A stretch of 64,000 bases of DNA, taken from Solirubrobacterales bacterium. GTDB taxonomy: Bacteria; Actinomycetota; Thermoleophilia; Solirubrobacterales; 70-9. Of this stretch, positions 16,177-33,723 are shown in pieces (position 1 is the first letter of the stretch; each line of letters opens with the position of its first letter). The translations under genes and the position numbers were made by a program. The stretch covers positions 9,359 through 73,358 of the forward strand of contig DATASN010000033.1 of the NCBI GenBank assembly GCA_036269215.1, in the 5' to 3' direction. Under the pieces are notes generated by a model. That model did not search any database, was not told where the DNA came from, and saw nothing but the letters and a program-made list of their open reading frames with translations.

Positions 16177-17574
16177 CTACCCCCCTTCGATCGGGGTGGG
16201 GGTGTCGACCTCGATCCGGGTCCGGTATTTCGGGTGGTCGTAGAGGATGCCGATCGCTTCTCCCGCGGTTTCCCCGGCGACTGTCAGGGCGACGCCGAGC
16301 CGGTCTCCGGCGGGGATTTCCACGGGTCCGCTGAATTCCATCGTCTTGCGCACCTCTTCCCACTTGCCCCACCACCAGATCCCGCTGCCGCCGGGCGTGT
16401 ACTTCCAGTAGGGGTTGGAGGTGCCGACTTCTTTGAGCCACGTATCCGTGGCCGTCGGCGGGGAGCCCGTTTCGTGGCGGTCGAAGAGGTAGGCGCAGAG
16501 CGTCCCGGTGTATTTCGCGTCGCTGAGCGCCCGCGTGAAGAAATCGAGCGTCACCTTGCCGGCGAGGGTGAATTTGGAAGCCATCGGGTCGGTGACCCAG
16601 CGGTGCGCCTGCCATTGCGGCGCCGTTTTCCCGGTCGGGACGTAATGGCAGCCGCTGGTGTCGTCGCGGCGGAGCTGGATGCCCTTGGCGGTTTCGGCCG
16701 ACGGCGGGCTCGGGTAGTCGTTCGAGTAGTCGTAGACGAGTGGGTTGTTTTCGTCTTCCGGCGCGGGGTCCGGCGGCGCGCCGATCAGCAGCGTATCCGG
16801 GGCGCCCGGCGTCACCCCCGTCTGCGGCCCGCTGGCGCAGGTGCCGAGCGTGTTGTGCAGAGCGTGGTCGCCGCTGATCGTCTGCCGCGCGGTCGTGCCC
16901 GCCGAGGCGCACGCGGTGTCGGAGAGGAAGAACTGCTGCGCCGTGACCACGCCGTTCGCCCCCGGGATCGGGTCGTTGAGGGCGCTGTCTTTGGGGTCGA
17001 TGAAGTCGGACTGGACTTCGACGTACCCCCTCTCCCCCGACTGGTTGCCGGGCGTGTCGAGCTTGACCGCGACGACGATCTGCTTGTAGTCCTGGCCCCC
17101 CGGACAGGTCGCGCTGGGGCAGCTCGTGTCGTTGCGCCAGACCACGTAGCGGTAGACTTTGCCGGTCACGTCGCCGCTCGTGAATTTGGTCGGGCCGGGA
17201 TTGACCACCCCGCCTTCGACGACGCCGCCGCCGTAGAGTTCGCCGCCGTTTTCGACCAGCCGGTGATATTCGGACGGCGGTTCCCGGATCACGGCAAATT
17301 CGGCGTTGGAGACGCGGTGACCCGGATTGAGCGTGTCGGTCGACGACGGTGGGGCAGCGGTGAGCGCCAGTTCCTTGTTGGAGAGGCTGCGCAGCTTCTC
17401 GATTTCCTGCTGGGCCTGATCGAGCGCGACCTGGCTCGCCTTCGCCCGCTGCGTGTTGATCGTCGCGGCGCGCAGAACCCCGAAGGTCGCGAAGGCGCCC
17501 AGGACCAGCACCAGTGCCGCGACCAGCACCTCGATGATCGTGATCCCGTCCTCTCTTTTCGCCAGGCGTCGCAT
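16177..17574 (-). CDS. Large PilV-like minor pilin (prepilin-type N-terminal methylation domain)
   Basis: The ATG at 17574 gives MRRLAKREDG/ITIIEVLVAALVLVLGAF, a class III signal, followed by a ~430-aa Cys-containing globular region. The start lies 2 nt after the upstream stop. Confidence 0.7.
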   Translation of the reverse strand: MRRLAKREDGITIIEVLVAALVLVLGAFATFGVLRAATINTQRAKASQVALDQAQQEIEKLRSLSNKELALTAAPPSSTDTLNPGHRVSNAEFAVIREPPSEYHRLVENGGELYGGGVVEGGVVNPGPTKFTSGDVTGKVYRYVVWRNDTSCPSATCPGGQDYKQIVVAVKLDTPGNQSGERGYVEVQSDFIDPKDSALNDPIPGANGVVTAQQFFLSDTACASAGTTARQTISGDHALHNTLGTCASGPQTGVTPGAPDTLLIGAPPDPAPEDENNPLVYDYSNDYPSPPSAETAKGIQLRRDDTSGCHYVPTGKTAPQWQAHRWVTDPMASKFTLAGKVTLDFFTRALSDAKYTGTLCAYLFDRHETGSPPTATDTWLKEVGTSNPYWKYTPGGSGIWWWGKWEEVRKTMEFSGPVEIPAGDRLGVALTVAGETAGEAIGILYDHPKYRTRIEVDTPTPIEGG

Positions 17575-17575
17575 C

Positions 17576-18169
17576 TCAGTCGCCCAGGGTCGCGTTGCGG
17601 AGGCTGGCTCCGTCGGAGACGGTGAGAGCCCCGCCCCCACCGCCCGGGTTCGGGATCGCGATCGTCACTCCGACGTAGGTCGGGGCGGTGGCGTTCGGGG
17701 TGTAGCTGAAGACGTTGGCGCTGTTGCTGAGGCCGGTGAAGATCGTCGTCAGGCTGCCTCCCGTGTATACGCCGGGTTCGGTCTCCCGCCGGGTGCAGCT
17801 TTCCGCCGCGCAGCTATAGGTCACCTCGCATTTGATCGCGGGCGAGCTGCTGGCCGAGAGGGTCGTGCCGCCGCAGGCCATGTGGCGCACGTAGGTCTGG
17901 AAGGAGACCGAGGAGGTCGAGGTCGCTTTGTCGACGACCACGCCCTCGCGCAGTTCGCGGGTCATCCGCTCCAGCACGAAGCGGGCCGTCTGGATGTTGG
18001 CCGACTTCTGGCTGATCTTGGGCTGTGCCCGCAGCGCCCCGATCAGCAGCGGCACCACAGCGGCCATCAGAACGACCCCCATCGCCGAGGCGATGAGAAG
18101 CTCGGTCAGGGTCATCCCCGCCTCGCCCCGGCCGCCCCCGAGAGAGAGCGCGTGCAGTACCCGCCTCAT
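17576..18169 (-). CDS. PilW-like minor pilin (prepilin-type N-terminal domain)
   Basis: The ATG at 18169 gives MRRVLHALSLGGGRGEAG/MTLTELLIASAMGVVLMAAVV. It has an ATGA overlap with the upstream gene's stop at 18166. Confidence 0.7.
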   Translation of the reverse strand: MRRVLHALSLGGGRGEAGMTLTELLIASAMGVVLMAAVVPLLIGALRAQPKISQKSANIQTARFVLERMTRELREGVVVDKATSTSSVSFQTYVRHMACGGTTLSASSSPAIKCEVTYSCAAESCTRRETEPGVYTGGSLTTIFTGLSNSANVFSYTPNATAPTYVGVTIAIPNPGGGGGALTVSDGASLRNATLGD

Positions 18170-20544
18170 CCCTTCACCAGCTTGAACTTGCGGACGACCG
18201 GCGCCTGCTCCGCCATCCCCGCGTTCGCCCCGATCACTTCGAAGACGTGCCGGCCGGGGTGCACAGGCTTCAGCCGCTGTGGAGAGCTGCATCCGTACCA
18301 GCGGTGGCGATCGACCCGGCAGAGGAAGGTCGTGCCGCCCTGGCCCGTCGTGTCGACGAACTGGAAGACGGGGCGGCGCGCCCGCGTCTTGAAGGCCGGT
18401 GCGAAGGTGATCCGGGTCTGAGGTGCGAAATGAAGGGCCCCTGGCTCCGTACCGCCCCCGCCTTTGCCCGCCCCGGGCCCGCCACCAGCGGAACCGCCGC
18501 CACCGGCACCTCCGCCTTCGTCGCCACCTCCTCCGCCCCCGGCCGATTCGGAGGCCTGCGTGTAGGAGATCGCGGGCGAGCAGGGCGAGGTATCGGCGTT
18601 GAGGTCGGTGGCGGTCGCGCGGAAGGACGTCGTCGAGCCCGCCGGCACGGTGACGACGATGCCGGCGCCGCCAAGCTCCGCCGAGCTGCCGGTGGCCACG
18701 GGAGCCCCCGAGCAGTCGGCCGTTTTGTAGAGCTTGATCGCGGAGTTCGAGTCCGCCTGGCCGCGGACCGCCGGGGTCGTCGAGGAGCCGGGGGATGGCG
18801 GGTTCGTCCCGGTGAGCACCGGCGTCGCCGGGCCGAGCTGAAGCGAGTTGCCCACCGATACGAGCCGCGTTTTGGTCCCGGCACGTTCGTAGACGTCGCT
18901 TTCGGAATCGACGTCTTCGGCCGTCAGGCGCTTGACCGTCGAGAAGATCACGACGGAGCCGTTTTCGGCGGCGCCGTCGAAGTTCGCGTTGCAGCCTTTT
19001 TCTTCGCTGAGCGGACAGATCCCGCCCGTGGACTCGGGCGCCGTGGCGGGCGAGCCGGTCAGCTGGCGCATGTAGATGTCGGTCGATTCGTCGCCGTCGG
19101 CCGAGCTCAGCGATTCGGTCGTAGAGAAGAAGGCCCGCGCCCCGTCCGGCGTCACGCCCGAGAGCCTCGATTCCGCCGACCCGTTGCCGCAACCCGGCGC
19201 GCAGGACGCTTCGCCCTGCGAGACCAGCGTCGTCGTGCCTTTGCCGAGGTCCCGCATGTAGGCATCGGTGGCGCTGTCTTCGTCCTCGGAGGCCAAGCGT
19301 TCGTTTGTCTGGAAGAAGACTTTGCTCCCGTCCGAGGAGGCGCCGCGATATTCGGCGTTGCATTCCGAGACCAGGGGGCAGGTTCCTTCGACCGAGACGA
19401 GCGTCGTCGTGCCGCTGACGAGGTCACGCGCGTAGACGTCGGTGGCTTCGTCTCCATCGCCGGCCACCAGCGGTTCGCTGGTCTGGAAGAAGACGGTGGC
19501 GCCGTCGGCGAATGCCCCCGCGTACGTCGCCGGCGAAGCGCCGCTTGCATCGGTCGGCCCGGTCGAGACCAGCACGGGCGCCCCGCCCGTCCAAGCGTAG
19601 ACATCCGACGACCCGTCTTCGTCGCTCGGCGACAGCTGCTGATCGGTCTGGAAGAACACGTGCGAGCCGTCTTCGGAGGCGCCGCGGAAGATCGCGTTGC
19701 AGTCGAGGCCGGCACCACAGGCGCCTGTGCCGGAGACGAGCGTCGTCGTGCCGCTGACGAGGTTGCGCACGTAGAGGTCCTGCAGGTTGTCTTCGTCTTC
19801 GCTGGCAAGCCGCTCACTGGTCTTGAAGACGACGACCGAGCCATTCATAGAAGCGTCGCTGAAGGAAGCCGCGAAGGGACCGTTGCCGCAACCGGACGCC
19901 AGGCAGGAGGCGGCGCCCCGAGATACGAGTTTCGTGGCTCCCGCGCCGATTTCGCGAACGTAGACGTCGAAGGAGCTGTCGCTGTCGCCGCCAGCGAGCT
20001 GTTCTTCGCTGACGAAGAAGACCTTGGAGCCATCCGGCGTAACGCCGACGAAGATCGAATCGGCGAAGCCGTTGCCGCAGAGCGATTCGGCGCACGAGGG
20101 GTTGCCCTGGGTGACCAGCGTCGTCGTGCCGTTCGAGAGGTCACGCATGTAGACGTCTTCGGCGCGATCCGTGTCTTCGGCGACCAGCGACTCGCTGGTC
20201 GAGAAGAAGACCTTCGAACCGTCCGAGCTGACGCCGTCGTAGGTGGCGTCGAAGGCGTCGTTGCCACCGGTCGGCCCGGTCGAGACCTCGCGCGTCACGT
20301 AGGCCCCGAGGCCGATGTCGAAGGAGCGCTCGTAGACGTCGAGCCGGTTGTCGGTGTCGCCAGGGACCAGCTTTTCCGTCGTCGTGAAGAAGATCGTGCC
20401 GCCGTCGACCGAAGCGCCGGCGTAGTTGGCGGGCGCGGCGTTTGCCGTCGAGGCGGAGAGAGCAATGCAGAAGAATGCCGCAGATGCAAGCACCGCGAAC
20501 CAGACAGTGCGCCACGACGGGCTATTCAGCAGCTTGAGCGACAT
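18166..20544 (-). CDS. Secreted PD40/TolB-like beta-propeller repeat protein with C-terminal Ig-like domains
   Basis: The ATG at 20544 is preceded by GAGGAA and opens a Sec signal, MSLKLLNSPSWRTVWFAVLASAAFFCIALSASTANA. About 9 repeats of 55-62 aa follow, with consensus sxDGSkVFFxTxExLvxxDxDxxxDVYxRdLxxGTTTLVS. Then come an Ig-like domain, a Gly-rich linker and a second beta domain. Confidence 0.7.
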   Translation of the reverse strand: MSLKLLNSPSWRTVWFAVLASAAFFCIALSASTANAAPANYAGASVDGGTIFFTTTEKLVPGDTDNRLDVYERSFDIGLGAYVTREVSTGPTGGNDAFDATYDGVSSDGSKVFFSTSESLVAEDTDRAEDVYMRDLSNGTTTLVTQGNPSCAESLCGNGFADSIFVGVTPDGSKVFFVSEEQLAGGDSDSSFDVYVREIGAGATKLVSRGAASCLASGCGNGPFAASFSDASMNGSVVVFKTSERLASEDEDNLQDLYVRNLVSGTTTLVSGTGACGAGLDCNAIFRGASEDGSHVFFQTDQQLSPSDEDGSSDVYAWTGGAPVLVSTGPTDASGASPATYAGAFADGATVFFQTSEPLVAGDGDEATDVYARDLVSGTTTLVSVEGTCPLVSECNAEYRGASSDGSKVFFQTNERLASEDEDSATDAYMRDLGKGTTTLVSQGEASCAPGCGNGSAESRLSGVTPDGARAFFSTTESLSSADGDESTDIYMRQLTGSPATAPESTGGICPLSEEKGCNANFDGAAENGSVVIFSTVKRLTAEDVDSESDVYERAGTKTRLVSVGNSLQLGPATPVLTGTNPPSPGSSTTPAVRGQADSNSAIKLYKTADCSGAPVATGSSAELGGAGIVVTVPAGSTTSFRATATDLNADTSPCSPAISYTQASESAGGGGGGDEGGGAGGGGSAGGGPGAGKGGGGTEPGALHFAPQTRITFAPAFKTRARRPVFQFVDTTGQGGTTFLCRVDRHRWYGCSSPQRLKPVHPGRHVFEVIGANAGMAEQAPVVRKFKLVKG

Positions 20545-20600
20545 CGTTCCTCTATCGGTCGAATTCGAAGATTCGCTTAGTCCGTGCCTTGGTCCTGGCC

Positions 20601-20638
20601 AAAAAGAGCGAGGGGCGGGCCAACCAGCCCGCCCCTCG
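20601..20638 (-). terminator. Intrinsic terminator/attenuator downstream of pilA
   Basis: On the minus strand a 12-bp GC stem (CGAGGGGCGGGC, loop UGGUUG, GCCCGCCCCUCG) is followed by CUCUUUUUGG. Confidence 0.65.
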
Positions 20639-20683: not shown

Positions 20684-21148
20684 TCAGCCGTTAGCCCAGT
20701 TGCCTCCAGAAGGACAACCGCCGCCGCCAGTCGAAGGCGTACATGTGTAGGACAAACCACCGCCTGCCGCGCGCGCGACACTGAACGTATGCGCAGTTAC
20801 TGCGGCAGTCACTGTGACCTTGTACGTTTCGGTGCCCTGTTCGGTAGTTGTAAAGCTCACGCCGCTCAGAGTTGGCTCAATAGTTTCGAGTTGCGGCTTT
20901 CCGCAAGGGGTGTACCCGCCGCTGTTTTCGGTTGCGCACGTCTCCATCGCAACCTGAGCGGTATGCACGTACTCCTTGGCCTTGGCGTCGTCGGCCTTCT
21001 GCTTCTGGTTGAAGAACGCCGGCAGCGCGATCGCGGCCAGGATTCCGAGGATGAGCATGACGACGAGAAGCTCGATCAGCGTGAAGCCGGCCTCGCTGTC
21101 GCCGTTGAGCCGGGCGCCAACCTTGGCCCGGAGATTCTGGAGAAACAT
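20684..21148 (-). CDS. pilA: Major type IV pilin
   Basis: The leader MFLQNLRAKVGARLNGDSEAG is followed by FTLIELLVVMLILGILAAIALPAF. There are C-terminal Cys pairs. An AGGAGG SD lies 7 nt upstream. GC is ~53% against ~70% for the window. Confidence 0.85.
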   Translation of the reverse strand: MFLQNLRAKVGARLNGDSEAGFTLIELLVVMLILGILAAIALPAFFNQKQKADDAKAKEYVHTAQVAMETCATENSGGYTPCGKPQLETIEPTLSGVSFTTTEQGTETYKVTVTAAVTAHTFSVARAAGGGLSYTCTPSTGGGGCPSGGNWANG

Positions 21149-21219
21149 TTAGGGACCTCCTAGGTTCCTATCGATTTCGCCAGAGCCCCGTCGCATCTCA
21201 GCCACGTGGTGTCTGTCGA

Positions 21220-21307
21220 CCCCGGTGGTAGCCCGGCCAACTCCCAGAAGGGAGTCCCGACAGCTTTGCGCCCCCGCCTCACAGCGAGTTTGCCTTTGGC
21301 ACCGAGG
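21220..21307 (-). promoter_or_regulatory. Candidate c-di-GMP-I (GEMM-I) riboswitch aptamer in the pilA leader
   Basis: The minus-strand RNA is CCUCGGUGCCAAAGGCAAACUCGCUGUGAGGCGGGGGCGCAAAGCUGUCGGGACUCCCUUCUGGGAGUUGGCCGGGCUACCACCGGGG. It contains, in canonical order, the blocks AAAGGCAAAC, a 6-bp hairpin with GNRA loop GUGA, GCGCAAAGC, a second hairpin, and GCCGGGCUACC. A closing helix CCUCGGUG/CACCGGGG is available. Confidence 0.55.
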
Positions 21308-21339
21308 CACTGGCAGATTCATCACAGCCACTTAATCGA

Positions 21340-21348
21340 CCCCCCCCC
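21340..21348. repeat. C9/G9 homopolymer tract upstream of the pilA leader
   Basis: The plus strand has nine consecutive C between cttaatcga and agatctc. Confidence 0.9.
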
Positions 21349-21424
21349 AGATCTCTAAATCCTCGAAACTAGGGCTTCATCTCCCCAAAACTCAGGTTTC
21401 TCGCCCGCCCATTCCCCAAGGTCC

Positions 21425-21748
21425 GTGGCTAACATGGCTTCGATGACCGCCCCGCAAGCCAACAACGCCGTGCTCGCCCGCTCTCGAGCCCGCGGCGACA
21501 TCTCACGCATCGCTTCCGAGCATGGAGCCCGCAACATCCGAGTGTTCGGGTCGGCAAGCCGCGGCGAGGCAGGCGCTCGCGACCTGGACCTTCTGGTCGA
21601 GATGGCTGCAGGCCGCAGCCTCCTCGACCTGATCGCTCTTTCCCAGAGCCTCGAGGACGCTCTGAGGGTCCACGTGGACGTCCTTACCGAGGCCGGTCTG
21701 TCACCTTATCTCCGTGATCGAATCCTCGCCGAGGCGGTCCCTCTTTGA
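21425..21748 (+). CDS. MNT-type nucleotidyltransferase (antitoxin of a HEPN/MNT pair)
   Basis: IRVFGSASRGEAGARDLDLLVEM matches the GSxxRGExxxxSDxDLLV NTase motif. It overlaps the downstream DUF86 ORF (TTGA). Confidence 0.75.
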   Translation: MANMASMTAPQANNAVLARSRARGDISRIASEHGARNIRVFGSASRGEAGARDLDLLVEMAAGRSLLDLIALSQSLEDALRVHVDVLTEAGLSPYLRDRILAEAVPL

Positions 21749-21972
21749 AGGACGAGCAGGCCTACCTGCTCCATATCCGCGATGCGATCGATCGCGTGCT
21801 GAGCTACACCGAAGAGGGCCGCGACGTATTCCTTGGCGACCCGATGATCCAGGACGCGGTACTTCGGAACATGGAGATCCTCGGCGAGGCATCGAAGCGA
21901 GTCTCACAACCGCTGCGAGACCGTGCGCCGGATATGCGAGGGAGCAGCTGGACGATCAGTCATCTTGTCTGA
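21745..21972 (+). pseudogene. Truncated HepT/DUF86 HEPN-domain toxin remnant
   Basis: The N-terminal two thirds are DUF86-like (YLLHIRDAIDRVLSY...DAVLRNMEILGEASKRV). The ORF stops at 75 aa, where the Rx4-6H catalytic motif and last helices should be, and the tail RGSSWTISHLV does not fit the motif. Confidence 0.5.
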
Positions 21973-22044
21973 GTCAGTAGTTCAGAACCTGAATACCAAC
22001 TGGTTCAGAAAGCTTGAACTTTTCGGTATGCTGACTTTGAACCG

Positions 22045-23166
22045 ATGGCGGAGCTCAATCCATTCATCTACGACCACCCTGTCCCGTCGGGGGAGTTGAT
22101 CGATCGCGAAGACGAGACCCGGAAGCTGCTCGAGTTGGCGGAGGGCGGGCACAACACGCGCCTCCAGGGGCCCCGGCGCTACGGCAAGACGAGCATTCTG
22201 AAACGACTCTTGGAGGACGCCGACAAGGTGGGCTGCCGCACCGTCTACGTCGATTTTCTCGCCGTGACCACCACTGCCGAGGTGGCCCGGCGCATACACG
22301 AGGCATATGAGGCGAGCCTCAAGGGGACGCTCGCGCAGATGTACAGCCGAATCCGGCGCGGCTGGCGGACTCGGATCAAGGCAGCCCCCGGCGGCGTTGG
22401 GCTGGAGGCGGAGCAGGGAGCGGGCATCGGCGCGATGCAGCAGCTCGCCGACCTGCTCGACCTCCCGACGAAGATCCTGGCCGACACCGGGCAGCGCACT
22501 ATCGTCGTCTTCGACGAGTTCCAGGACTTCCTCCGGACATCGGGAGAACTCGACGGCCTGCTCAGGAGCAAGATGCAGACTCACCACGATGCCGCGAGCT
22601 ACATCTTCTGCGCTTCCGAGTCAGCCCTTCTCGAGTCTCATTTCGCGGACCGGCAGAAGCCATTGTTCGACCAGGCAAGGCCGCTGTATCTCTCGGCGCT
22701 CTCGGATCTCGACCTTGGTGACTACATCGCCGAGGCGTTTCGCAAGACCGGCCGGGACTCGGGGAGCGCTCTGGACCTTCTCCTGGATCTGGTGCGCGGT
22801 CACCCGCAGCGGGCGATGCTGGTTGCCCACCACCTCTGGGAGCAGACTCCAGCGAATCGGGTCGCCGACGCCGACACTTTCGATACGGCGCTGAAGGCGA
22901 TGGATGGTGAGCTGAGGGAGCGCTTCGAGTACACCTGGAATCAGCTCTCGAGGCAACCCAATTCAAGCCGCACGCTGAAGGCCATTGCCATAAGCCCAGA
23001 GACGCTCTACAACCAGCGAACCCTCTCGAGGTTTGAGTTGAGCAAGAGCCAAGCGGCCTCCGGCGCCAAGACATTGGAGAGAGACGGCGAGCTGTGGACG
23101 GTAGATGGCCGCCCACAGATAATCGACCCCCTGCTCGAACGCTGGGTACGGATGAGGGAGGGCTAA
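22045..23166 (+). CDS. AAA+ ATPase of the Arch_ATPase/ATPase_2 (ORC/Cdc6-like) type with a C-terminal wHTH
   Basis: NPFIYDHPVPSGELIDREDE is followed by Walker A GPRRYGKTS and Walker B IVVFDEFQDFL. The C-terminal ~90 aa is winged-helix-like. Confidence 0.7.
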   Translation: MAELNPFIYDHPVPSGELIDREDETRKLLELAEGGHNTRLQGPRRYGKTSILKRLLEDADKVGCRTVYVDFLAVTTTAEVARRIHEAYEASLKGTLAQMYSRIRRGWRTRIKAAPGGVGLEAEQGAGIGAMQQLADLLDLPTKILADTGQRTIVVFDEFQDFLRTSGELDGLLRSKMQTHHDAASYIFCASESALLESHFADRQKPLFDQARPLYLSALSDLDLGDYIAEAFRKTGRDSGSALDLLLDLVRGHPQRAMLVAHHLWEQTPANRVADADTFDTALKAMDGELRERFEYTWNQLSRQPNSSRTLKAIAISPETLYNQRTLSRFELSKSQAASGAKTLERDGELWTVDGRPQIIDPLLERWVRMREG

Positions 23167-23198
23167 GAGCGGGGGAAGACCAGACCGATCCGCCCTTT

Positions 23199-24491
23199 TC
23201 AGGGCCCCAGCAGGGCGGCGGGAATGACTCCTATCCCGTCGCGACGGCGGTACGCCTCGGGGCCGGTGGTGATAACCGCGGCGTCGAGAAGGTCCTCGCC
23301 AAGCCGTTCGGCAAGCCAGCTTAGCTGCCTCGTGTCCCGATCCTCGACGGCTCGCGTCAGCTTGACCTCGAGAGCGACCACTCGCCCGTCGCCTCGATCG
23401 ACGATCAGATCCACCTCGTGCTCGCCGGCACGAGTGCGCAGATGGCCCACGTTCCCCGCCTCCGCCGCCTGCGCGTACGTTCTGACCGAGAGCGCCACCA
23501 AGGACTCGAAGAGCGCACCCAGAAGCGTGCCGTCCCGGGACATCGGCGGTCCCCCCGCCTCACCGCTCAGCAGCGCATCGGCGTTGACACCGAGCAGGCG
23601 GGCCGCAAGCGCCGGATCCGCGAGCTGGTGCTTTGGGGGCATCGCGAGCCGCCGTATGTGGCTGCGAGTTGGAGCCCAGGCCGGCAGCGGATCGAGGATC
23701 CAGAGTCGTTCCAGCGCGGTCCTATAGGGCCCAACCGTCGTTTTGGCGGGCTTCTCGCCCTGCCCCGCGGTCGCGGCATCGCGAATCTTCTCGAATGAGG
23801 CGGCTGTCGAGGTCGCGGCGGCGTAGGCGGTCAGCCAGTGGCGCAGGCCGTCGGGATTTCGCACTTCACGATCCAGCTCGTCGGCGAAGTCGCGGTCGAC
23901 GATCCTACGCAGGTAGCCGTCGAGCTGGCTGCGCAACGCTCGGCCGTCGAGCTGGCGGAGGCCCGGAAATCCGGACCGGATGATCTCGGCAACGTAATCC
24001 TGGAGCACCCAATCGGTGCGACCGTGGAGCTCGGGCCGCGCGCCGCTCAACAGGCTTCCCAGGCTGACGCTTGGGGGCTCGCTGCCGCGCTCGGCCAGCG
24101 AGAGAGGACGCATCCGCACGGTGACGATCCGGCCCGCTCCCGAGTGCGTTGGCGGGGCCGCCGGGGAGGCCGAGCCCGTGAGCAGGAACTGGCCTGGAGA
24201 TGCACCACGATCGACACTGCGACGGACGAGATCCCAGATCTCCGGCGTGCGCTGCCACTCGTCGAGCAGCACCGGTGGAGGATCGGCGAGCAGCCTCCTC
24301 GGGTCGCCCAAGGCAACCTCTCGCTGCCCGGGATCGTCGAGTGCATGAACGGTCGTTGAGCGACGCGAAGCGGTCACCGTCTTACCGACGCCCTTCGGCC
24401 CCTCGATCGCAATCGCGGGAAGCGAGGCCATGAGCTCGTCCAACTCGCCGTCGACAATGCGAGGCAGGTACGCGTCAACGGAGCGATCCAT
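23199..24491 (-). CDS. AAA_14 ATPase with DUF4143 domain
   Basis: Walker A is IEGPKGVGKT and Walker B-like is VLLDEWQRTPEIWDLV. FLLTGSASP is present, and the C-terminus has a PD-(D/E)xK-like motif EVDLIVDRGDGRVVALEVK. Confidence 0.8.
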   Translation of the reverse strand: MDRSVDAYLPRIVDGELDELMASLPAIAIEGPKGVGKTVTASRRSTTVHALDDPGQREVALGDPRRLLADPPPVLLDEWQRTPEIWDLVRRSVDRGASPGQFLLTGSASPAAPPTHSGAGRIVTVRMRPLSLAERGSEPPSVSLGSLLSGARPELHGRTDWVLQDYVAEIIRSGFPGLRQLDGRALRSQLDGYLRRIVDRDFADELDREVRNPDGLRHWLTAYAAATSTAASFEKIRDAATAGQGEKPAKTTVGPYRTALERLWILDPLPAWAPTRSHIRRLAMPPKHQLADPALAARLLGVNADALLSGEAGGPPMSRDGTLLGALFESLVALSVRTYAQAAEAGNVGHLRTRAGEHEVDLIVDRGDGRVVALEVKLTRAVEDRDTRQLSWLAERLGEDLLDAAVITTGPEAYRRRDGIGVIPAALLGP

Positions 24492-24630
24492 CCATCTAGA
24501 CTATCAAATGGACGGCTACTACGCTATCAAAGGACGAACTAAAGACCTACCTTTTGGACGCTCAACGGATGTCTTTTGCCTGGCTCGCGGCGACTTCGAC
24601 CATGTAGATTAAAGCTTATGCCACTAAGCT

Positions 24631-25014
24631 TTAAGGCCGTGCCACAGGCAGGCCGTTCTTGGTCCCCGCCTCGGCCAAACGCTCGTCGTAGGTGAAGAAA
24701 GCGCCAAGCTCGTCTCTGATGCTGAGGGCTGTGGCCAGGTGCAAGGCATCGAGACTTCGCAGCCCCGTCGGGCCTATCGATGCGGCCCCCTCAAGCACGG
24801 CGTCGTCGAGGGGCAGCAACGCCACGTCGACGATGAAGGACCGGGCGTCCTCCGCGTACTCCTCGCCGTAGCGCTCGCATGCCCTGATCGCCTCCACGCC
24901 GAGCAGGGCGCTGGACACATAGCCATCCCACTCAGCCAGCTCCGCAAGCAGCGCCTCCTGCTCGTCCTCCTGAAGCGGCAGCTTCACGTAGGCCGAGCTG
25001 TCCAGATAGGCCAG
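24631..25014 (-). CDS. vapC: VapC-type PIN-domain toxin (no canonical start codon; CTG at 25014 assumed)
   Basis: (L)AYLDSSAYVKL..., DALHLATAL and TYDERL give the PIN acidic residues. No in-frame ATG, GTG or TTG lies between the antitoxin region and the first PIN motif. Confidence 0.65.
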   Translation of the reverse strand: MAYLDSSAYVKLPLQEDEQEALLAELAEWDGYVSSALLGVEAIRACERYGEEYAEDARSFIVDVALLPLDDAVLEGAASIGPTGLRSLDALHLATALSIRDELGAFFTYDERLAEAGTKNGLPVARP

Positions 25015-25022
25015 CCGGCCGG

Positions 25023-25304
25023 CTACAGCCGCTCCTCGCGCACCTCGTCGAGAACTTGAAGGCTCGGGGGTCCCTCGGCGGGCGGGCGGGCCGAGCTGCG
25101 AACCCGGGAAAGCAAATCCCCACGCGGCATAGTCGCGCCCCGCTCGGCTGCGAGACGGGCGATCGGCGAATCCGCCGGACCCGACGGCGTGAGCCGCGCG
25201 ACCTCCCTGCCCCGCTCGGTGACGGCGAGGCTCTCCCCCGCCTTGACTTGGACCAGATAGCGAGAGAGGTTCTGCCGCAACTCTCGGACCCCGACCTGAT
25301 TCAT
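25023..25304 (-). CDS. Phd/YefM-family antitoxin
   Basis: MNQVGVRELRQNLSRYLVQVKAGESLAVTERGREVARLTP is a classic Phd/YefM N-terminus. It sits directly upstream of the PIN gene. Confidence 0.75.
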   Translation of the reverse strand: MNQVGVRELRQNLSRYLVQVKAGESLAVTERGREVARLTPSGPADSPIARLAAERGATMPRGDLLSRVRSSARPPAEGPPSLQVLDEVREERL

Positions 25305-25348
25305 GTGCGCCAGGGTAGCACTTCGTGCCGATATCCTCCTTGCTTGCT

Positions 25349-25759
25349 CTAAACCGCGACCACGACGAGGTGCTCATCCGCAGAAGCAAGGGCTTCGATG
25401 TCGCCTCGGTCCGCTGTGAGGACGATCGCACCTTGGTCGAGGGCGCAGCAGACGACGTGGGCATCGGCTACGTCGGTTCTCGCGCGGCTCCCCAAGCGCT
25501 CTCCGACTTCCTTCGCGCGGGCTTCGTCGAGCGTATCGCTTGCGATGCCCGTCATCAAGCGGGCAAGGCGCGCCGACCTCGGCCCGCCCCGCCAAGCTTG
25601 CGCCAGCGCGCTCGCGGGTACCACGACCTCGTCGCCGACCTCGAGGGCGTCTCCGATGATCGCCGCCGTGCGGCGGTCGGCCCGCTCGAAGGCGATCAAC
25701 GCTCCTGCGTCGAGGACGAGATCTCCCGCCGCGCCCTCGCCATTTCCTTCCGTGCCCAT
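25349..25759 (-). CDS. vapC: VapC-type PIN-domain toxin
   Basis: LVLDAGALIAFER, DAHVVCCAL and VLTADRGD supply the PIN acidic residues. The ATG at 25759 overlaps the upstream antitoxin by 64 nt. Confidence 0.7.
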   Translation of the reverse strand: MGTEGNGEGAAGDLVLDAGALIAFERADRRTAAIIGDALEVGDEVVVPASALAQAWRGGPRSARLARLMTGIASDTLDEARAKEVGERLGSRARTDVADAHVVCCALDQGAIVLTADRGDIEALASADEHLVVVAV

Positions 25760-26048: not shown

Positions 26049-27293
26049 TCAACGGATCTTTTCGTAGAGGCTGAAGAGCGGCAGGTACATCGAGATCACG
26101 ATGAAGCCGACCATGCCGCCGACGAAGACGATCATAATCGGCTCGATCAGGGCCGTGAGGGCCTTGACCTTGGCGTCGACCTCGGCCTCGTAGAAGTCGG
26201 CGATCTTGGTCATCATGTGCTCCAGCTGGCCGGTCTCCTCGCCGACCGCGACCATGTGGCCGACCATCGGCGGGAAGATCGGGTTGCCCTCGATCGGCCC
26301 GGCCAGGGAGCCGCCCCGCTTGACCGAGGCGTAGACATCGTCCATCGCCTGCTCGACGACGATGTTGCCGGAGGTCTCGCCGGTCAGTTTGATTGCCTGC
26401 AGCATCGGCACGCCGGAGGCGACCGAGCCGGCGAAGGTGCGCGACCAGCGGGCCAGCGCCACCTTCTGGATCACGTCGCCGATCTTGAACGGCAGCCGCA
26501 GGGTGAAGCGATCCCACATCTCTTTGCCGCGTTCGGTCTTCTTCCACCTGAAGAAGGCGAAGAAGCCGATCACCAAGGCAGGGATGATCACGAACCAGTA
26601 GCCGGTCAGCGCGTTGGAGACGCTCACGCAGAGCTGGGTCGGCGCGGGCAGCGACGAGCTTTCCCCGGGGTGTTCTTCGGCGATTTCTTTGAAGATGCCG
26701 ACGAAGACGGGGATCACGAAGACGACGATCGCGACCAGCACGACGATCGCGAAGCCGAAGACCAGCGCCGGGTACATCAGCGCCGACTTGACTTGGCGCC
26801 GCAGGGCGTCGGTTTTCTCCACCTGGAAGGCGATCCGGTCGAGGGCGTCCTCGAGGCGGCCCGACTGCTCTCCGGAGCGGACCATGGCGCGGAAGAGGCG
26901 GTCGAAGACCTTCGGGTGGCGCTCCATCGCCTGCTCCAGCGTGCTGCCCGCCTCGACGTCGGCACGGATGCCCGCGACCGCGTCCCGGATCATCTCGTCC
27001 TGGGTCTGTTCCTCGAGGGTCTGCAAGGTGCGCAGCATCGGCATCCCCGAGGCGACGAGGGTTGCGAACTGGCGCGAGAACACCGACAGCTCGCGCATGT
27101 CGACCGTCTGCCAGCGCTTGAAGAAGTCCTCGATGTTGACCGGGCTGGCCTTCTCGGTGACGTCGAGGACGATCAGCCCGCGCTGGCGCAGCTGGTCGGA
27201 GACCTGGGCCTTGGACTCGGCCTCGACCTCACCGGCCGAGGCGGCGCCGGCCAGGTCCATGGCGCGGAAGCTGAACGTCGTCGCCCCGGCCAC
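26049..27293 (-). CDS. pilC: Type IV pilus platform protein PilC (GspF family)
   Basis: It has two GspF repeats, a polytopic architecture and the N-terminus FSFRAMDLAGAASAGEVEAESKAQVSDQLRQRGLIVLDV. Confidence 0.9.
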   Translation of the reverse strand: MAGATTFSFRAMDLAGAASAGEVEAESKAQVSDQLRQRGLIVLDVTEKASPVNIEDFFKRWQTVDMRELSVFSRQFATLVASGMPMLRTLQTLEEQTQDEMIRDAVAGIRADVEAGSTLEQAMERHPKVFDRLFRAMVRSGEQSGRLEDALDRIAFQVEKTDALRRQVKSALMYPALVFGFAIVVLVAIVVFVIPVFVGIFKEIAEEHPGESSSLPAPTQLCVSVSNALTGYWFVIIPALVIGFFAFFRWKKTERGKEMWDRFTLRLPFKIGDVIQKVALARWSRTFAGSVASGVPMLQAIKLTGETSGNIVVEQAMDDVYASVKRGGSLAGPIEGNPIFPPMVGHMVAVGEETGQLEHMMTKIADFYEAEVDAKVKALTALIEPIMIVFVGGMVGFIVISMYLPLFSLYEKIR

Positions 27294-27296
27294 TTC

Positions 27297-28490
27297 TCAG
27301 GTCCCCTGGGTGTACGTCGGCGCCGCCGGGGGTGCGGTCGAACCGGCTGAGGCAGCTGCCGGCACCCCGTTCGAGGGGGAGCTCGCCGGCATTCCAGCGG
27401 GCGACGCCTGCGGCATGACGGGCGCGGCACCGCCGAGCAGCCGCTTCAGCTCCTCCGGCACGGAGGCGCGCTGTTCGGCCACCGAGCGGGTGATCTTCCC
27501 GGCCCGCACCAGGCGCGCGAGGTCGGCGTCCATGGTCTGCATCCCGACCGCGCCGGAGGTTTGCACCGCGGCGTAGATCTGGTGGGTCTTGCCCTCGCGG
27601 ATCAGGTTGCGGATCGCCGGCGTCGGCACCAGCACCTCGCAGGCGACAACGCGGCCCATCCCGTCGGAGGTCGGCAGCAGCTGCTGGGTGACGATCCCCT
27701 GCAGGGCGATCGAGAGCTGCGTGCGCACCTGGCCCTGCTGCTGGGGCGGGAAGACGTCGATGATCCGGTCGACCGTCTGAGCGGTCGATTGGGTGTGCAG
27801 CGTGGCGAAGACGAGGTGGCCGGTCTCCGCCGCGGTCAGCGCGGTGGAGACCGTCTCCAGGTCGCGCATCTCGCCGACGAGGATCACGTCGGGATCCTCT
27901 CGCAGGGCGGCGCGCAGCCCGAGGGCGAAGTCCTCGGCGTCGGCGCCGACCTCGCGCTGGTTGACGATCGAGCGTTTGTGCTGGTGCAGGAACTCGATCG
28001 GGTCCTCGATCGTGAGGATGTGGTCCTGGTGCTCGGAGTTGATCACGTCGAGCATCGCCGCCAGGGTCGTCGACTTGCCCGAGCCGGTCGGGCCGGTGAC
28101 CAGCACGAAGCCGCGCGGTTTGGAGGTCAGGTCGCGCAGGATCGGTGGCACGGCGAGGGACTCGAGGCTGGGAATCTCCTGCGGCACGAGGCGAAAGGCA
28201 GCGCTGACCGAGCCGCGCTGGAAGAAGCAGTTGACGCGGAAGCGAGCGACGTTGGGGATCGCGTAGGCGAAGTCGAGCTGCTTGTGGTTCTCAAAGCGCT
28301 TGCGCTGGTCGTCGTTGAGGATGCTGTAGACGACCTCGCGGGTCTCCTGCCCGGAGAGCACCGGGAAGCCCTCCATCGGGGAGATCTTGCCCTTGTCGCG
28401 GATCGCCGGCGGGGAGCCCGCGGTGAGGTGGACGTCGGAGGCCCTGGTCTCGACCATGCGGCGGAGAACCTCTGAGAAGTCAAAGTCCAT
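27297..28490 (-). CDS. pilT: Twitching-motility retraction ATPase PilT with a ~50-aa Pro/Ala-rich C-terminal tail
   Basis: ASDVHLTAGSPPAIR, Walker A GPTGSGKSTT, ILTIEDPIEF, ILVGEMRDLET and GHLVFATLHT are all present. Confidence 0.9.
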   Translation of the reverse strand: MDFDFSEVLRRMVETRASDVHLTAGSPPAIRDKGKISPMEGFPVLSGQETREVVYSILNDDQRKRFENHKQLDFAYAIPNVARFRVNCFFQRGSVSAAFRLVPQEIPSLESLAVPPILRDLTSKPRGFVLVTGPTGSGKSTTLAAMLDVINSEHQDHILTIEDPIEFLHQHKRSIVNQREVGADAEDFALGLRAALREDPDVILVGEMRDLETVSTALTAAETGHLVFATLHTQSTAQTVDRIIDVFPPQQQGQVRTQLSIALQGIVTQQLLPTSDGMGRVVACEVLVPTPAIRNLIREGKTHQIYAAVQTSGAVGMQTMDADLARLVRAGKITRSVAEQRASVPEELKRLLGGAAPVMPQASPAGMPASSPSNGVPAAASAGSTAPPAAPTYTQGT

Positions 28491-28550: not shown

Positions 28551-30344
28551 TCAGGCGGTGACACGCAGAACCTCCTCGAGGCTGGTCATGCCGCTCCGCA
28601 CCTTGGAGAGGCCGTCTTCGCGCAGGGTCAGCATGCCCTCCTCGCGGGCGACCGCGGCGATCTCAGACTCCGGGGCCTGCGCCACGGCCATCTCCTTGAT
28701 CCGCTCGCTCATCCGCATCACCGAGTAGATGCCGACACGTCCTCGATAGCCACTCTGGTTGCAGCGGCCGCAGCCGATCGGCTCGTAGGCCTCGAGCTCG
28801 GCGCCCACCCGCAGGCCGGCGTCGTTCAAGGCGTTGGGAGGGACGATCGTGCGGCGCTTGCAGTGGGTGCAGAGCTTGCGGGCGAGGCGCTGGGCGACCA
28901 CGCAGTCGACGGCGGACGCCGTGAGGAAGGCCTCGATCCCCATCTTGGTCAGGCGGGTGATCGCGCCCGGGGCGTCGTTGGTGTGCAGCGTGGTCAGCAT
29001 CATGTGCCCGGTCAGCGCCGCCTCGATCGCGATCCGCGCGGTCTCGCCGTCGCGGATCTCGCCGACCATGACGATGTCGGGGTCGGCGCGCAGGATCGAG
29101 CGCAGGCCGGTGGCGAAGTCGAGCCCCGCCTTGCGGTCGACGTTGATCTGTTTGATCCCCGAGAGCCGGTACTCGACCGGGTCCTCGATCGTGATGATGT
29201 TCTTCTCGACTTGATTCAGCTCCTGCAGGGCCGCGTAGAGGGTCGTCGACTTACCGGAGCCCGTCGGCCCGGTTACGAGGACCGCCCCGTAGGCCTGGTG
29301 GAAGGAGCCCTCGAAGCGCTCCCGTGCCGAGCTGTCCATGCCGAGCTCGTCGAGCGAGCGCTGCGCGTTCTCCTTGTCGAGGATGCGGATCGTCGCCCCC
29401 TCGCCGCGCTGGGTCGGCAGCGTCGTGACACGGAGGTCGACCCTGCGGTCCTCGACGGTGACGCTGACCCGGCCGTCCTGCGGAACCCGCTTCTCGGCGA
29501 TGTTGAGGTCGCTCATGATCTTGATCCGCGAGACGACCGCGTTGATCATCCGTTTCGGCACGTGGGCGGCCTCCCGAAGCACGCCGTCGATCCGGAAGCG
29601 AACCCGCATCTCGTCCTCGTCGGGCTCGAAATGAACGTCAGAGGCGCCCTCGCCCACCGCCTGACCGAGGATGCTGTAGACGAGCTTGATCACCGGCGCG
29701 TCCTCGGCGCTGACCTGGATGTCGCTGACTTCGGCGAGTTCCTCCTCGCCCTCCGCCTCGCCCTCGATGACGGCCTCGCTGACCGCGCTCTGAAGCGTGT
29801 TGAGACGACCGATCAGCGCTTCGATGTCCTCGTCGGCCGCGACGGCGACCTTGCAGTCGAGTGCGGTCGCGATCTGGATGTCGTCGACGGCGAGCACATT
29901 GGTCGGGTCGGCCATCGCGACGAGCAGGGTGCCCTTGTCCACGAAGCCAACCGGCAGCGCCCTGTAGCGGCGCGCGGTGTTGACCGGAATCAGGTTGGCC
30001 GCGGCCATGTCGACGTGGTAGGCGGAGAGATCGATGTGATCGAGGCCGTAGCGCTCGGCGATCGCGCGCGAGAGCCGATCCGAGGTGATCGCACCCTGTT
30101 GGAGCAACAGGGCCTCGGGAGGCATCGCGGCGGTGCGCGCCTCTTCGATCGCCTGGCGGGCGCGCTCTTCAGGCACGTAGCCGAGGTCGACGAGGACGTC
30201 GGTGACGAAACCGCTGGAGCGGCCGGGGGCGACGGGCGGCGTCAGCCCCGGCGTCCCCCCCACCTCGGGTCCGAGGTCCCGCGCGGTGGCCTCACCGGCT
30301 CCAGGCACCGGGCGCAGATGGCTCGGATAGTCCCCGGAGGCCAT
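28551..30344 (-). CDS. pilB: Type IV pilus extension ATPase PilB (GspE family)
   Basis: It has T2SSE_N-like N-terminal domains, Walker A GPTGSGKSTT, IITIEDPVEY, the tetracysteine region CTHCKRR...CGRCNQSGYRGR, and GHMMLTTLHTN. Confidence 0.9.
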   Translation of the reverse strand: MASGDYPSHLRPVPGAGEATARDLGPEVGGTPGLTPPVAPGRSSGFVTDVLVDLGYVPEERARQAIEEARTAAMPPEALLLQQGAITSDRLSRAIAERYGLDHIDLSAYHVDMAAANLIPVNTARRYRALPVGFVDKGTLLVAMADPTNVLAVDDIQIATALDCKVAVAADEDIEALIGRLNTLQSAVSEAVIEGEAEGEEELAEVSDIQVSAEDAPVIKLVYSILGQAVGEGASDVHFEPDEDEMRVRFRIDGVLREAAHVPKRMINAVVSRIKIMSDLNIAEKRVPQDGRVSVTVEDRRVDLRVTTLPTQRGEGATIRILDKENAQRSLDELGMDSSARERFEGSFHQAYGAVLVTGPTGSGKSTTLYAALQELNQVEKNIITIEDPVEYRLSGIKQINVDRKAGLDFATGLRSILRADPDIVMVGEIRDGETARIAIEAALTGHMMLTTLHTNDAPGAITRLTKMGIEAFLTASAVDCVVAQRLARKLCTHCKRRTIVPPNALNDAGLRVGAELEAYEPIGCGRCNQSGYRGRVGIYSVMRMSERIKEMAVAQAPESEIAAVAREEGMLTLREDGLSKVRSGMTSLEEVLRVTA

Positions 30345-33638: not shown

Positions 33639-33723
33639 CGAGACCTATATCGGCCGAGACGAACCTTCCCTTAACCCGCCAGGGGGGAGAGAATCGGGGT
33701 GTGTGAGCTTGACGTTCATATAG

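Follow-up and report, generated by a model that had tools for sequence, protein, structure and literature searches.

Background

Control of a type IV pilin by a riboswitch for the second messenger cyclic di-GMP (c-di-GMP) is established for pilA1 of Clostridioides difficile, as the original prediction on the DNA treated here had stated; the riboswitch, Cdi-2-4, is of class II and works as an ON switch by transcription anti-termination, with read-through into pilB (PMC6366702). For the class I aptamers of the GEMM family, pilM, pilO and pilQ of Geobacter were among the linked genes in the first description (PMC1950547). In the deep-branching Actinomycetota, c-di-GMP signalling is known so far through a protein switch controlling type IV pili: in Rubrobacter (class Rubrobacteria, sister to Thermoleophilia), the pilus genes have promoters of the TAAA/GCCGATAA type, which are read by the sigma factor WhiG, and RsiG sequesters WhiG once it is armed by c-di-GMP (PMC8325347). 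Enrichment of c-di-GMP riboswitches was reported by a recent survey for Thermodesulfobacteriota and Deinococcota, not for Actinomycetota. Here, the leader of the major type IV pilin gene pilA was analysed in a 64-kb stretch of DNA from a Solirubrobacterales bacterium (contig DATASN010000033.1), the whole of which is referred to as the window; all coordinates are those of the window, position 1 being its first letter, and (-) marks the minus strand. The best explanation of the data is very probably that pilA is under a c-di-GMP-I (GEMM-I) riboswitch and, jointly with it, that helix P1 of the aptamer takes part in a two-state switch with an anti-P1 hairpin and a clamp helix.

The full-text literature pairing the word riboswitch with Actinobacteria, Actinomycetota or Thermoleophilia was searched, and no prior description for an actinobacterial pilin was found, as had been supposed when the element was first noticed; no description of a riboswitch element in Thermoleophilia was found in the same literature. 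No mention of a riboswitch was found in the WhiG papers examined here, PMC8325347 among them.

Identification of the aptamer

The 88-nucleotide (nt) minus-strand RNA at 21307..21220 was read letter for letter as originally given. It had been placed 72 nt upstream of the pilA start codon, and this position holds, since the aptamer ends at 21220 and the ATG occupies 21148..21146, with 71 nt between them. All of the blocks that had been named were found, namely GGCAAAC, the stem CUCGCU/GGCGGG of 6 base pairs (bp) with its GUGA loop, CGCAAAGC, a second hairpin and GCCGGGCUACC, and the complementary ends able to close P1 are present as CCUCGGUG/CACCGGGG.

The whole window was scanned against 4227 Rfam families at their gathering scores, and RF01051 (c-di-GMP-I) was the only family that reached its score. 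The match at 21304..21224 (-) scored 54.8 bits (gathering score, 35; E, 5.9e-8) and spanned model positions 1-87 of 87, by which the proposed c-di-GMP-I identity was borne out. The control family RF01786 (c-di-GMP-II) gave no match in the window at gathering scores and none with E ≤ 10 in 21050..21450. Because the standard Rfam model finds the element unaided, Rfam-based annotation would probably flag it.

Together with its closing helix, the aptamer occupies 21220..21307 (-), as supported by the RF01051 match and by covariation. P1 is formed by 8 bp between 21307..21300 and 21227..21220 (-), and it encloses a 2-bp stem, an AAA loop, the 6-bp helix P2 with a GUGA cap, an AAA linker and the helix P3. 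The first hairpin of GEMM elements is described as a 2-bp stem, a 3-nt internal loop, a 6-bp stem and a GNRA tetraloop, followed by an AAA linker that is virtually invariant, and elements with a GYRA loop are without the tetraloop receptor (PMC1950547). Here, the first hairpin consists of a GC/GC 2-bp stem, an AAA internal loop, CUCGCU/GGCGGG and a GUGA loop, and the receptor is missing from the second hairpin, the receptor positions of RF01051 being deleted in the alignment. The minimum-energy structure of the isolated 88-mer was exactly the GEMM-I architecture.

Conservation and covariation

Relatives were collected by a scan for the pilin with one genome kept per species (genome set), which gave 80 loci with a pilin identity of 58-70%. 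Nearly all of them were from Solirubrobacterales or from metagenome-assembled genomes labelled Actinomycetes or Actinomycetota (lineage Actinomycetota; Thermoleophilia), in agreement with the high-GC actinobacterial host that had been proposed. The aptamer was present in 61 of the 80 loci, with GGCAAA lying 141-149 nt before the start codon, and absent from the other 19. The 61 aptamer-bearing loci and the window make up the 62 aptamer leaders, and the 80 loci and the window the 81 leaders referred to below. In a sample submitted to Rfam, the gathering score was passed by 12 of 14 loci with the aptamer and by 0 of 6 without it. When the pilin of L013, the most divergent one, was used as the query of a further scan, another 80 loci were obtained from soil metagenome contigs (metagenome set), 74 of them with a full leader; the 20 most divergent all reached the gathering score of a c-di-GMP-I clan family. 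The pooled set comprised 135 full leaders, of which 118 were distinct.

Across the 62 leaders, 96.7% of the aptamer cells were paired, against only 33-52% in slid registers, and 12 pairs were changed on both sides, against 3.9 in shuffles, none of 500 shuffles reaching the observed number. With the 118 distinct sequences, the cells changed on both sides numbered 39 in P2, 86 in P3 and 9 in P1 (shuffled means of 8.2, 15.7 and 1.1, respectively). For P2 and for P3, none of 300 shuffles reached the observed counts, and the two-sided changes were spread over 5 of the 6 stem pairs of P2 and 10 of the 14 pairs of P3. P1 was paired in 99.5% of cells, one of its pairs exchanging U-A for C-G in 9 distinct sequences. 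The conservation and covariation that had been anticipated upstream of orthologous pilins were thus found, strongly for P2 and P3 and as one exchanged pair for P1. The columns of the AAA linker (21267..21265) were A in 61, 62 and 61 of the 62 leaders, respectively, and the P2 loop was GUGA or GCGA in 115 of the 118 distinct sequences. The aptamer is a canonical GEMM-I element of the GYRA-tetraloop type without receptor and with c-di-GMP-type pocket bases, and it is under structural selection across about 135 pilin leaders.

Two points weigh on the other side. The folding-energy z-score of the 88-mer was only -1.1 in a stretch of 67% G+C, so the argument is carried by the covariance model and the comparative data and not by stability; and the sequences are phylogenetically related, so that counts across them overstate independence. 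That the element arose as a chance match or is a relic in decay, in either case without a regulatory role, is extremely improbable. The unremarkable z-score would fit such an origin, as would the loss of the aptamer in 19 of the 80 relatives and the degenerate copies below the gathering score in two loci (L010 and L038), but it is contradicted already by the covariation, with compensation seen in each of P2, P3, P1 and the anti-P1 hairpin across the 118 distinct sequences, as well as by the E value of the RF01051 match, the invariant pocket bases and the fixed geometry relative to promoter and start codon. By every sequence-level comparison that could be made the element is a member of the c-di-GMP-I family, and it is almost certainly a genuine c-di-GMP-I aptamer acting in cis on pilA.

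Tandem units were observed in L017 (2019-2098 and 2846-2925), L038 and L109 (1041-1176 and 1856-1991), with a separate pilin paralogue of about 156 amino acids (aa) behind each copy, and L013 has two aptamer copies as well.

Ligand pocket

In the Vc2 aptamer of Vibrio cholerae, A47 intercalates between the two guanines of the ligand. Smith et al. are said to have described, in 2009, the role of G20 of Vc2 in steering selectivity among cyclic dinucleotides. In the Rfam alignment, the equivalent of G20 is the G at 21294 (-), immediately 5' of the 2-bp GC stem, and it was G in 59 of the 62 leaders and in 113 of the 118 distinct sequences. The equivalent of A47 is the A at 21267 (-), with which the AAA linker begins once the 2-bp stem has closed; this column was A in 61 of the 62 leaders. 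The ACC after P3 (21227..21229 (-)) has two Cs that were invariant in the 62 leaders, and C21228/C21227 are taken, by comparison with the Vc2 structure, to hold the equivalent of C92. These pocket bases (G21294, A21267 and C21228/C21227) together read G/A/CC in 113 of the 118 distinct sequences. As G20 is the position of selectivity for cyclic dinucleotides (PMC9262584), its conservation as G points to c-di-GMP, and not to cyclic GMP-AMP (cGAMP), as the ligand to be expected from the sequence.

It is very improbable that the aptamer senses another cyclic dinucleotide (3'3'-cGAMP, as in GEMM-Ib) or belongs to the c-di-GMP-I-GGC class (RF03167), whose ligand is unknown. In E-value mode, RF03167 was the best clan match for the window, with 50.7 bits, several relatives lay above its gathering score, and A was found at the G20 position in a few relatives (L013/L081/L082, L010 and L038). 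The window, on the other hand, lies below the RF03167 gathering score (50.7 versus 59). The consensus of RF03167, CGCGAAGC, has G for the A47 equivalent, and this is the sole conserved core position at which the RF01051 and RF03167 consensus lines differ; the window reads CGCAAAGC instead, with A, as do all of the relatives labelled GGC. The name GGC is presumably a reference to this position, as judged by us from both Rfam consensus lines. With G at the G20 equivalent in the window and in the same 113 of 118 distinct sequences, membership in the GGC variant or in GEMM-Ib (A at G20) was rejected for the window on the pocket bases G21294 and A21267.

Eight relatives (L112, L114, L101, L144, L115, L109, L118 and L149) were reported as RF03167 above its gathering score, all of them with A at the A47 equivalent. 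Judged by their sequences, this label is an artefact of clan competition, since competition by E value favours the shorter model. It is a pitfall of annotation, because automatic annotation would put canonical aptamers of this lineage into a variant class. True deviations in the pocket were seen in three groups. The two aptamers of L013 (1953-2039 and 2844-2930; also L081 and L082) have A at G20 and are otherwise canonical, with 51.7 bits; L038 (1474-1623 and 2823-2975) has A20 and G47 in both tandem copies, with a 7-nt P2 loop and a score below the gathering score; and L010 (2828-2974) has A20 in a degenerate copy. By sequence, the pocket variants of L013, L038 and L010 may have changed their dinucleotide selectivity, or they may be decaying.

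Probable two-state fold of the leader

An alternative fold with open P1 was obtained both as the RNAalifold consensus of the 62 leaders and as the minimum-energy fold of the 154-nt leader of the window. In this fold, the 3' strand of P1 is captured by the conserved linker in the anti-P1 hairpin CCAC-CG-GGGUC-GACA-GAC-A-CC-AC-GUGG (21202..21228 (-)), and the 5' strand of P1, extended upstream, is paired with 21190..21179 in the clamp helix, so called because it closes around the entire sensor. The 5' strand of the clamp is GCCAGUGCCUCG (21303..21314 (-)) and the 3' strand, which is rich in G and is called the switch strand, is CGGGGCUCUGGC (21179..21190 (-)). Because the 5' strand of the clamp overlaps that of P1 (21307..21300), the clamp and P1 are mutually exclusive. 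The mean difference between the P1-enforced and the clamp-enforced ensembles was -0.3 kcal/mol for 59 sequences and +0.3 kcal/mol for 109 sequences, and such near-equal energies are as expected of a switch that ligand binding should tip.

Both alternative helices were 99% paired in the genome set but invariant, and hence without covariation there. With the 118 distinct sequences, 93% of the cells of the anti-P1 hairpin were paired, and 11 two-sided changes were counted against 1.6 in shuffles, none of 300 shuffles being as high. Base 21226, the A of CACC, was compared with both of its partners. With the P1 partner 21301, U-A was found 102 times and C-G 9 times, and with the anti-P1 partner 21204, A-U was found 92 times, G-C 7 times and G-U 5 times; where 21226 is G, the P1 partner is C in 9 distinct sequences, and the anti-P1 partner is C in 7 and U in 5. 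When a single base covaries with two partners that exclude each other, a two-state RNA switch is classically indicated. The clamp, with the U-U column excluded, was paired in 99% of cells, and substitutions at the three variable positions of the 5' strand that it shares with P1 are almost all C/U exchanges, by which pairing with the Gs of both partner strands is kept. What speaks against the switch is that the clamp itself is nearly invariant and essentially without covariation (4 two-sided changes, against 1.8 in shuffles).

The linker contains CCACGTGG (21209..21202), an 8-bp perfect palindrome that is more than 90% conserved in the genome set and missing from the aptamer-less leaders. It might be read as a DNA operator for a dimeric repressor, in which case a protein and not RNA refolding would explain the conservation. 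This is very unlikely, since divergent leaders lose the palindrome and yet keep the complementarity to the P1 3' strand by compensation (CCGCC/GGCGG and GCCG/CGGC), and since the palindrome arises automatically when GUGG must pair with CCAC beside a CC/GG pair. A two-state switch of P1 versus the anti-P1 hairpin and the clamp is considered likely, in which c-di-GMP would lock P1, and P1 so locked would dissolve the clamp and free the G-rich strand 21190..21179.

Aptamer-less leaders

The 19 leaders without aptamer (L008, L009, L018, L019, L021, L027, L028, L031, L033, L035, L041, L050, L051, L058, L060, L063, L068, L074 and L075) all kept the clamp, in the form of a simple hairpin of -15 to -34 kcal/mol about 110 nt before the pilin start, and in three versions of it the internal mismatch was found at different places. 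Of the aptamer they still carry the 17 nt at the 5' end, GGUGCC-loop-GGCAA, and L008 is an intermediate in which only P2 is kept. The kept clamp and this remnant were read as deletion of an ancestral aptamer with the leader locked in the clamp (ligand-free) state, so that by sequence these leaders look like natural deletions locking the ligand-free fold.

Output step

It had been stated that no U-tract terminator lies between the aptamer and AGGAGG, and an intrinsic terminator was indeed sought in the leader and not found, the only one following pilA. Since that ordinary terminator shows that the organism uses them, the absence from the leader is meaningful. The Shine-Dalgarno sequence AGGAGG (21156..21161 (-)) lies partly inside a small local hairpin, UAGG.ACCU / AGGU.CCUA. 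Direct masking of it was considered and rejected, the mean unpaired probability of -14..+6 being 0.36 with P1 and 0.38 with the clamp. With no terminator in the leader and the Shine-Dalgarno sequence equally exposed in both modelled states, the output of the switch is probably post-transcriptional.

When P1 was enforced, folding paired the switch strand (21190..21179) with codons 2-7 of pilA, enclosing the start site, with UCUGG/CCAGA, GGGG/CUCC (UCUC in the window's own fold) and AAAC or GAAAU/GUUU(C) as the predicted pairs. The cost of opening -18..+16 was 15.2 kcal/mol with P1 and 12.6 kcal/mol with the clamp, with an excess for P1 above 0.5 kcal/mol in 101 of 109 distinct sequences, which favours a translational OFF switch. 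The freed G-rich strand would most likely pair with the start of the coding region, and this pairing would make the ribosome landing site harder to open and so lower translation; the mRNA may also lose stability.

Against a translational output stands, besides the equal exposure of the Shine-Dalgarno sequence, a recoding control in which codons 2-11 of five leaders were replaced by 50 synonymous recodings drawn from the window's own codon usage. The native opening difference was exceptional in the window (0/50) and in L029 (3/50), and unexceptional in L001, L112 and L147, with the sign reversed in L112. Specific selection for pairing of the switch strand with codons 2-7 was rejected, as this control was mixed and as the pairing was not recovered by RNAalifold over 81 initiation regions. 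Translation is accordingly taken as the leading output, though tentatively and with slightly more doubt than belief.

Alternatively, the same sensor could act on the fate of the mRNA instead of on translation initiation, with Rho or RNase E/J gaining access to the linker and the G-rich strand in the ligand-bound form and the clamp protecting the leader. The lack of a terminator and of direct Shine-Dalgarno masking fits this output, as does the failure of the translational signal in the synonymous recodings of three of the five lineages, and the clamp helix, which is long, stable, close to the 5' end and preserved in the aptamer-less leaders, resembles a stabilising 5' stem-loop. Against it, about 10 nt would be single-stranded 5' of the clamp with the predicted start, which is long for 5'-end protection, and the linker, with 7 C and 6 G, shows no marked excess of C over G, unlike typical Rho loading sites. 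Control of mRNA fate is considered rather unlikely, but a serious alternative.

Two further candidates in the linker were rejected. An upstream open reading frame (ORF), which in the window runs from an AUG at 21196..21194 to an in-frame UAA right next to the AUG of pilA, is not conserved among the relatives, its AUG being replaced by ACG, AAG, AGG or UCG in many of them and its frame stopping early in others. A helix between the 5' tail and the linker ("P0"), predicted with P1 enforced, was by eye not kept in the divergent leaders L003, L010, L013 and L029; in the pooled set it was 87.6% paired with 7 two-sided cells, many cells of the 5' tail being gaps and a slid register giving as many.

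Codons 2 and 5 of pilA (21145..21134 (-)), TTT and AAT, are conserved across most loci and rare in this genome (4 TTT versus 90 TTC and 5 AAT versus 68 AAC in eight genes). Recoded codons were harder to open in 50 of 50 trials for L001 and L112, and not so for the window, L029 and L147. These rare codons may keep the start region open.

Direction of control

Under a translational OFF switch, c-di-GMP would then reduce pilin. The OFF direction is given a slight preference, because the clamp-locked lineages presumably still make major pilin and because c-di-GMP in Rubrobacter arms RsiG to sequester WhiG, which coherent control by the riboswitch would match.

The opposite direction has the same riboswitch and the same two-state switch, and c-di-GMP would raise pilin output, as it does for pilA1 of C. 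difficile. The opened clamp would expose a single-stranded ribosome standby site upstream of the start, or the 5' end would become paired. Several observations speak for it and so against OFF control. A ribosome standby site could result from the release of about 55 nt in front of a structured initiation region; with P1 enforced, GUGAUGAAUCUG of the conserved 5' tail is paired by folding with CAGACACCAC of the linker, which would bury the 5' end; the initiation region of L112 is easier to open with P1 formed; and in C. difficile, c-di-GMP promotes type IV pili through a riboswitch (PMC6366702). On the other hand, the aptamer-less lineages are clamp-locked and yet must express major pilin, the opening cost is higher with P1 in 101 of the 109 sequences, the pairing of 5' tail and linker is lost in the four divergent leaders (L003, L010, L013 and L029), and the WhiG-RsiG logic of the sister class turns the pilus genes off at high c-di-GMP. 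An ON switch is thus regarded as rather improbable, though conceivable.

Candidate promoter and 5' end

Transcription probably starts, as judged by sequence, from a sigma-28/WhiG-type promoter, for which a candidate is at 21333..21359 (-), with -35-like TTTA/TTAG at 21359..21355 and -10-like GTCGATTA at 21340..21333. The box G(C/T)CGAT(G/T/A)A is conserved in the 81 leaders and ends 18 nt before the GCCAG of the clamp in 58 of the 62 aptamer leaders, the window included, and 11-18 nt before it in the aptamer-less ones. The best spacer from the TAAA/TCAA box was 15 nt in 71 of the 81 leaders. A sigma-70-type promoter was looked for in the leader region and none was found. The WhiG type was defined as TAAA-N15-GCCGATAA with at most 2 mismatches (as in PMC8325347), and the homologous box of relatives has 1-2 mismatches in many cases. 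Two weaknesses of this promoter assignment are to be set against it: the window's own box has 4 mismatches (TTAG / GTCGATTA) and is weak alone, and the transcription start, presumed to leave a 5' tail of about 9-12 nt, was derived from promoter geometry only.

Between the -10 box and the clamp, the stretch 21315..21332 (-), with the block GTGATGAATCT and the presumed transcription start, showed a conservation above 90% in the 62 leaders of the genome set, against 60-70% in the pooled set. The -35 box was TCAA in 37 of the 62 aptamer leaders and TAAA in 17 of the 19 aptamer-less leaders, with mean mismatches of 2.8 and 1.7, respectively, uncorrected for phylogeny. Elsewhere in the window, TAAG-N15-GCCGATAT at 33647..33673 (-), which departs from the WhiG consensus at 2 positions, stops 8 nt short of the ATG (33638) of a second pilT and could, from its sequence, give a nearly leaderless WhiG-type transcript of that gene. 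A weaker WhiG-type match with 3 mismatches was found at 31619..31645 (-).

Gene context

The gene downstream of the aptamer is pilA (20684..21148 (-)), which encodes a type IVa major prepilin of 154 aa. Its leader MFLQNLRAKVGARLNGDSEAG|FTLIELLVV ends in G and is followed by FTLIE and a hydrophobic helix, and Pfam N_methyl was matched with E 5.7e-9. The naming of the gene as a type IV pilin thus stands, by the prepilin N-methylation motif and the type IV pilus cluster around it. PilA has the sole canonical prepilin motif in the window, besides a pilin-like protein of 487 aa with GITIIEVLVA near its N-terminus (about 17547), which is encoded at 16177..17640 (-) by one of two large ORFs. The cluster has the order pilB-pilT-pilC...pilA...pilD-pilM-pilN-pilO, all on the same strand, with pilB at 28551..30344 (-), pilT at 27297..28490 (-) and pilC at 26049..27293 (-); the second pilT (32523..33638 (-)) is on this strand as well. 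Pfam matches on the strand of pilA were Peptidase_A24, T2SSE (3 copies), T2SSF, PilM, PilN and PilO.

A canonical intrinsic terminator (20609..20638 (-)), with a 13-bp G+C-rich stem and then CTCTTTTT, follows pilA, so that the gene is monocistronic and the two large proteins 3' of it (16177..17640 and 18166..20600 (-)) lie outside the riboswitch-controlled transcript. These two gave no Pfam match, the second having a signal-peptide-like start, and they may be minor pilin or tip proteins.

Between pilC and pilA lies a block of about 4 kb with lower G+C (0.62-0.66; 21425..25464), which holds a nucleotidyltransferase, a small overlapping ORF without Pfam match, a PIN-domain protein and two AAA ATPases (an ATPase_2/AAA protein and an AAA_14+DUF4143 ATPase). 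It looks like an inserted toxin-antitoxin or defence-like islet splitting the pilus cluster, and owing to it the pilA promoter is divergent to the nucleotidyltransferase gene. The remaining window is ordinary chromosome, with ftsZ, a primary-type sigma factor, a transhydrogenase and ergothioneine genes.

Binding of c-di-GMP by PilB (28551..30344) was considered and rejected: Pfam MshEN was matched, but the canonical motif RLGxx(L/V/I)(L/V/I)xxG... is missing. Residues of about 40-70 and 99-182 were examined, and the best-aligned MshEN stretch begins FVTDVLVDLGYV, with FVT in place of RLG. No third c-di-GMP input is therefore claimed.

Comparison with known systems

Novelty lies in the lineage, in a platform without terminator, in the natural series of deletions and in the riboswitch being likely stacked on a sigma factor under c-di-GMP control. 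An RNA sensor conserved on the major pilin gene would give the same organelle a second, independent c-di-GMP input, in a host group of abundant and almost uncultured soil bacteria, and would be a clear example of a class I c-di-GMP riboswitch without terminator. The mapped alternative fold, the doubly covarying base and the natural deletions make signal transmission by riboswitches of high G+C directly testable. More speculatively, and with considerable doubt, the leader could be a relay-type platform in which four strands exchange partners, added to the WhiG-RsiG switch, so that one messenger gates the gene twice. The four strands would be, equally doubtfully, the P1 5' strand, the P1 3' strand, the G-rich switch strand and the coding start or an RNase/Rho site. 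If this were true, one second messenger would gate at transcription initiation and again after transcription, and the locked deletion derivatives together with the pocket variants (A20; A20 and G47) would form an evolutionary series for the rewiring or loss of a riboswitch; the A20 and the A20 and G47 variants may read another dinucleotide.

With the members of RF01051 (Vc2 and Vc1 of V. cholerae, Cd1 of C. difficile, and Bc1 and Bc2 of B. thuringiensis), the pilA element shares the aptamer family by covariance model, the helices, the AAA linker, the GNRA-capped P2, the pocket bases and the position in cis in the 5' untranslated region of a surface or motility gene, and as a GYRA type without the 11-nt receptor it falls into a subtype already described (PMC1950547). 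The studied Gram-positive examples of c-di-GMP-I, in contrast, use intrinsic terminators (PMC6366702, PMC11218506), whereas the pilA element has none and has an exchange of P1, anti-P1 and a 5'-3' clamp instead. The scaffold of c-di-GMP-I-GGC (RF03167) is nearly identical, but where it has a conserved G following the 2-bp stem, the window and all relatives inspected have A.

As in Geobacter GEMM and GEMM-Ib, an aptamer of the GEMM-I fold is associated with type IV pilus genes. Many of the Geobacter copies are cGAMP-selective, with A at G20, whereas the pilA element has G, and the Geobacter elements precede assembly genes in a diderm proteobacterium, whereas the pilA element precedes an actinobacterial major pilin. 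Like Cdi-2-4, the pilA element is a c-di-GMP riboswitch that immediately precedes the gene for the major type IV pilin of a monoderm host. Unlike that non-homologous class II element, it is of class I, the gene is monocistronic, there is no terminator, and the direction is likely OFF. With the RsiG-(c-di-GMP)-WhiG system of Rubrobacter it shares c-di-GMP, type IV pilus genes, a basal actinomycetotal host and a box of the TAAA-N15-GCCGATAA type, but the Rubrobacter system is a protein switch on transcription initiation (PMC8325347), whereas the pilA element is an RNA sensor.

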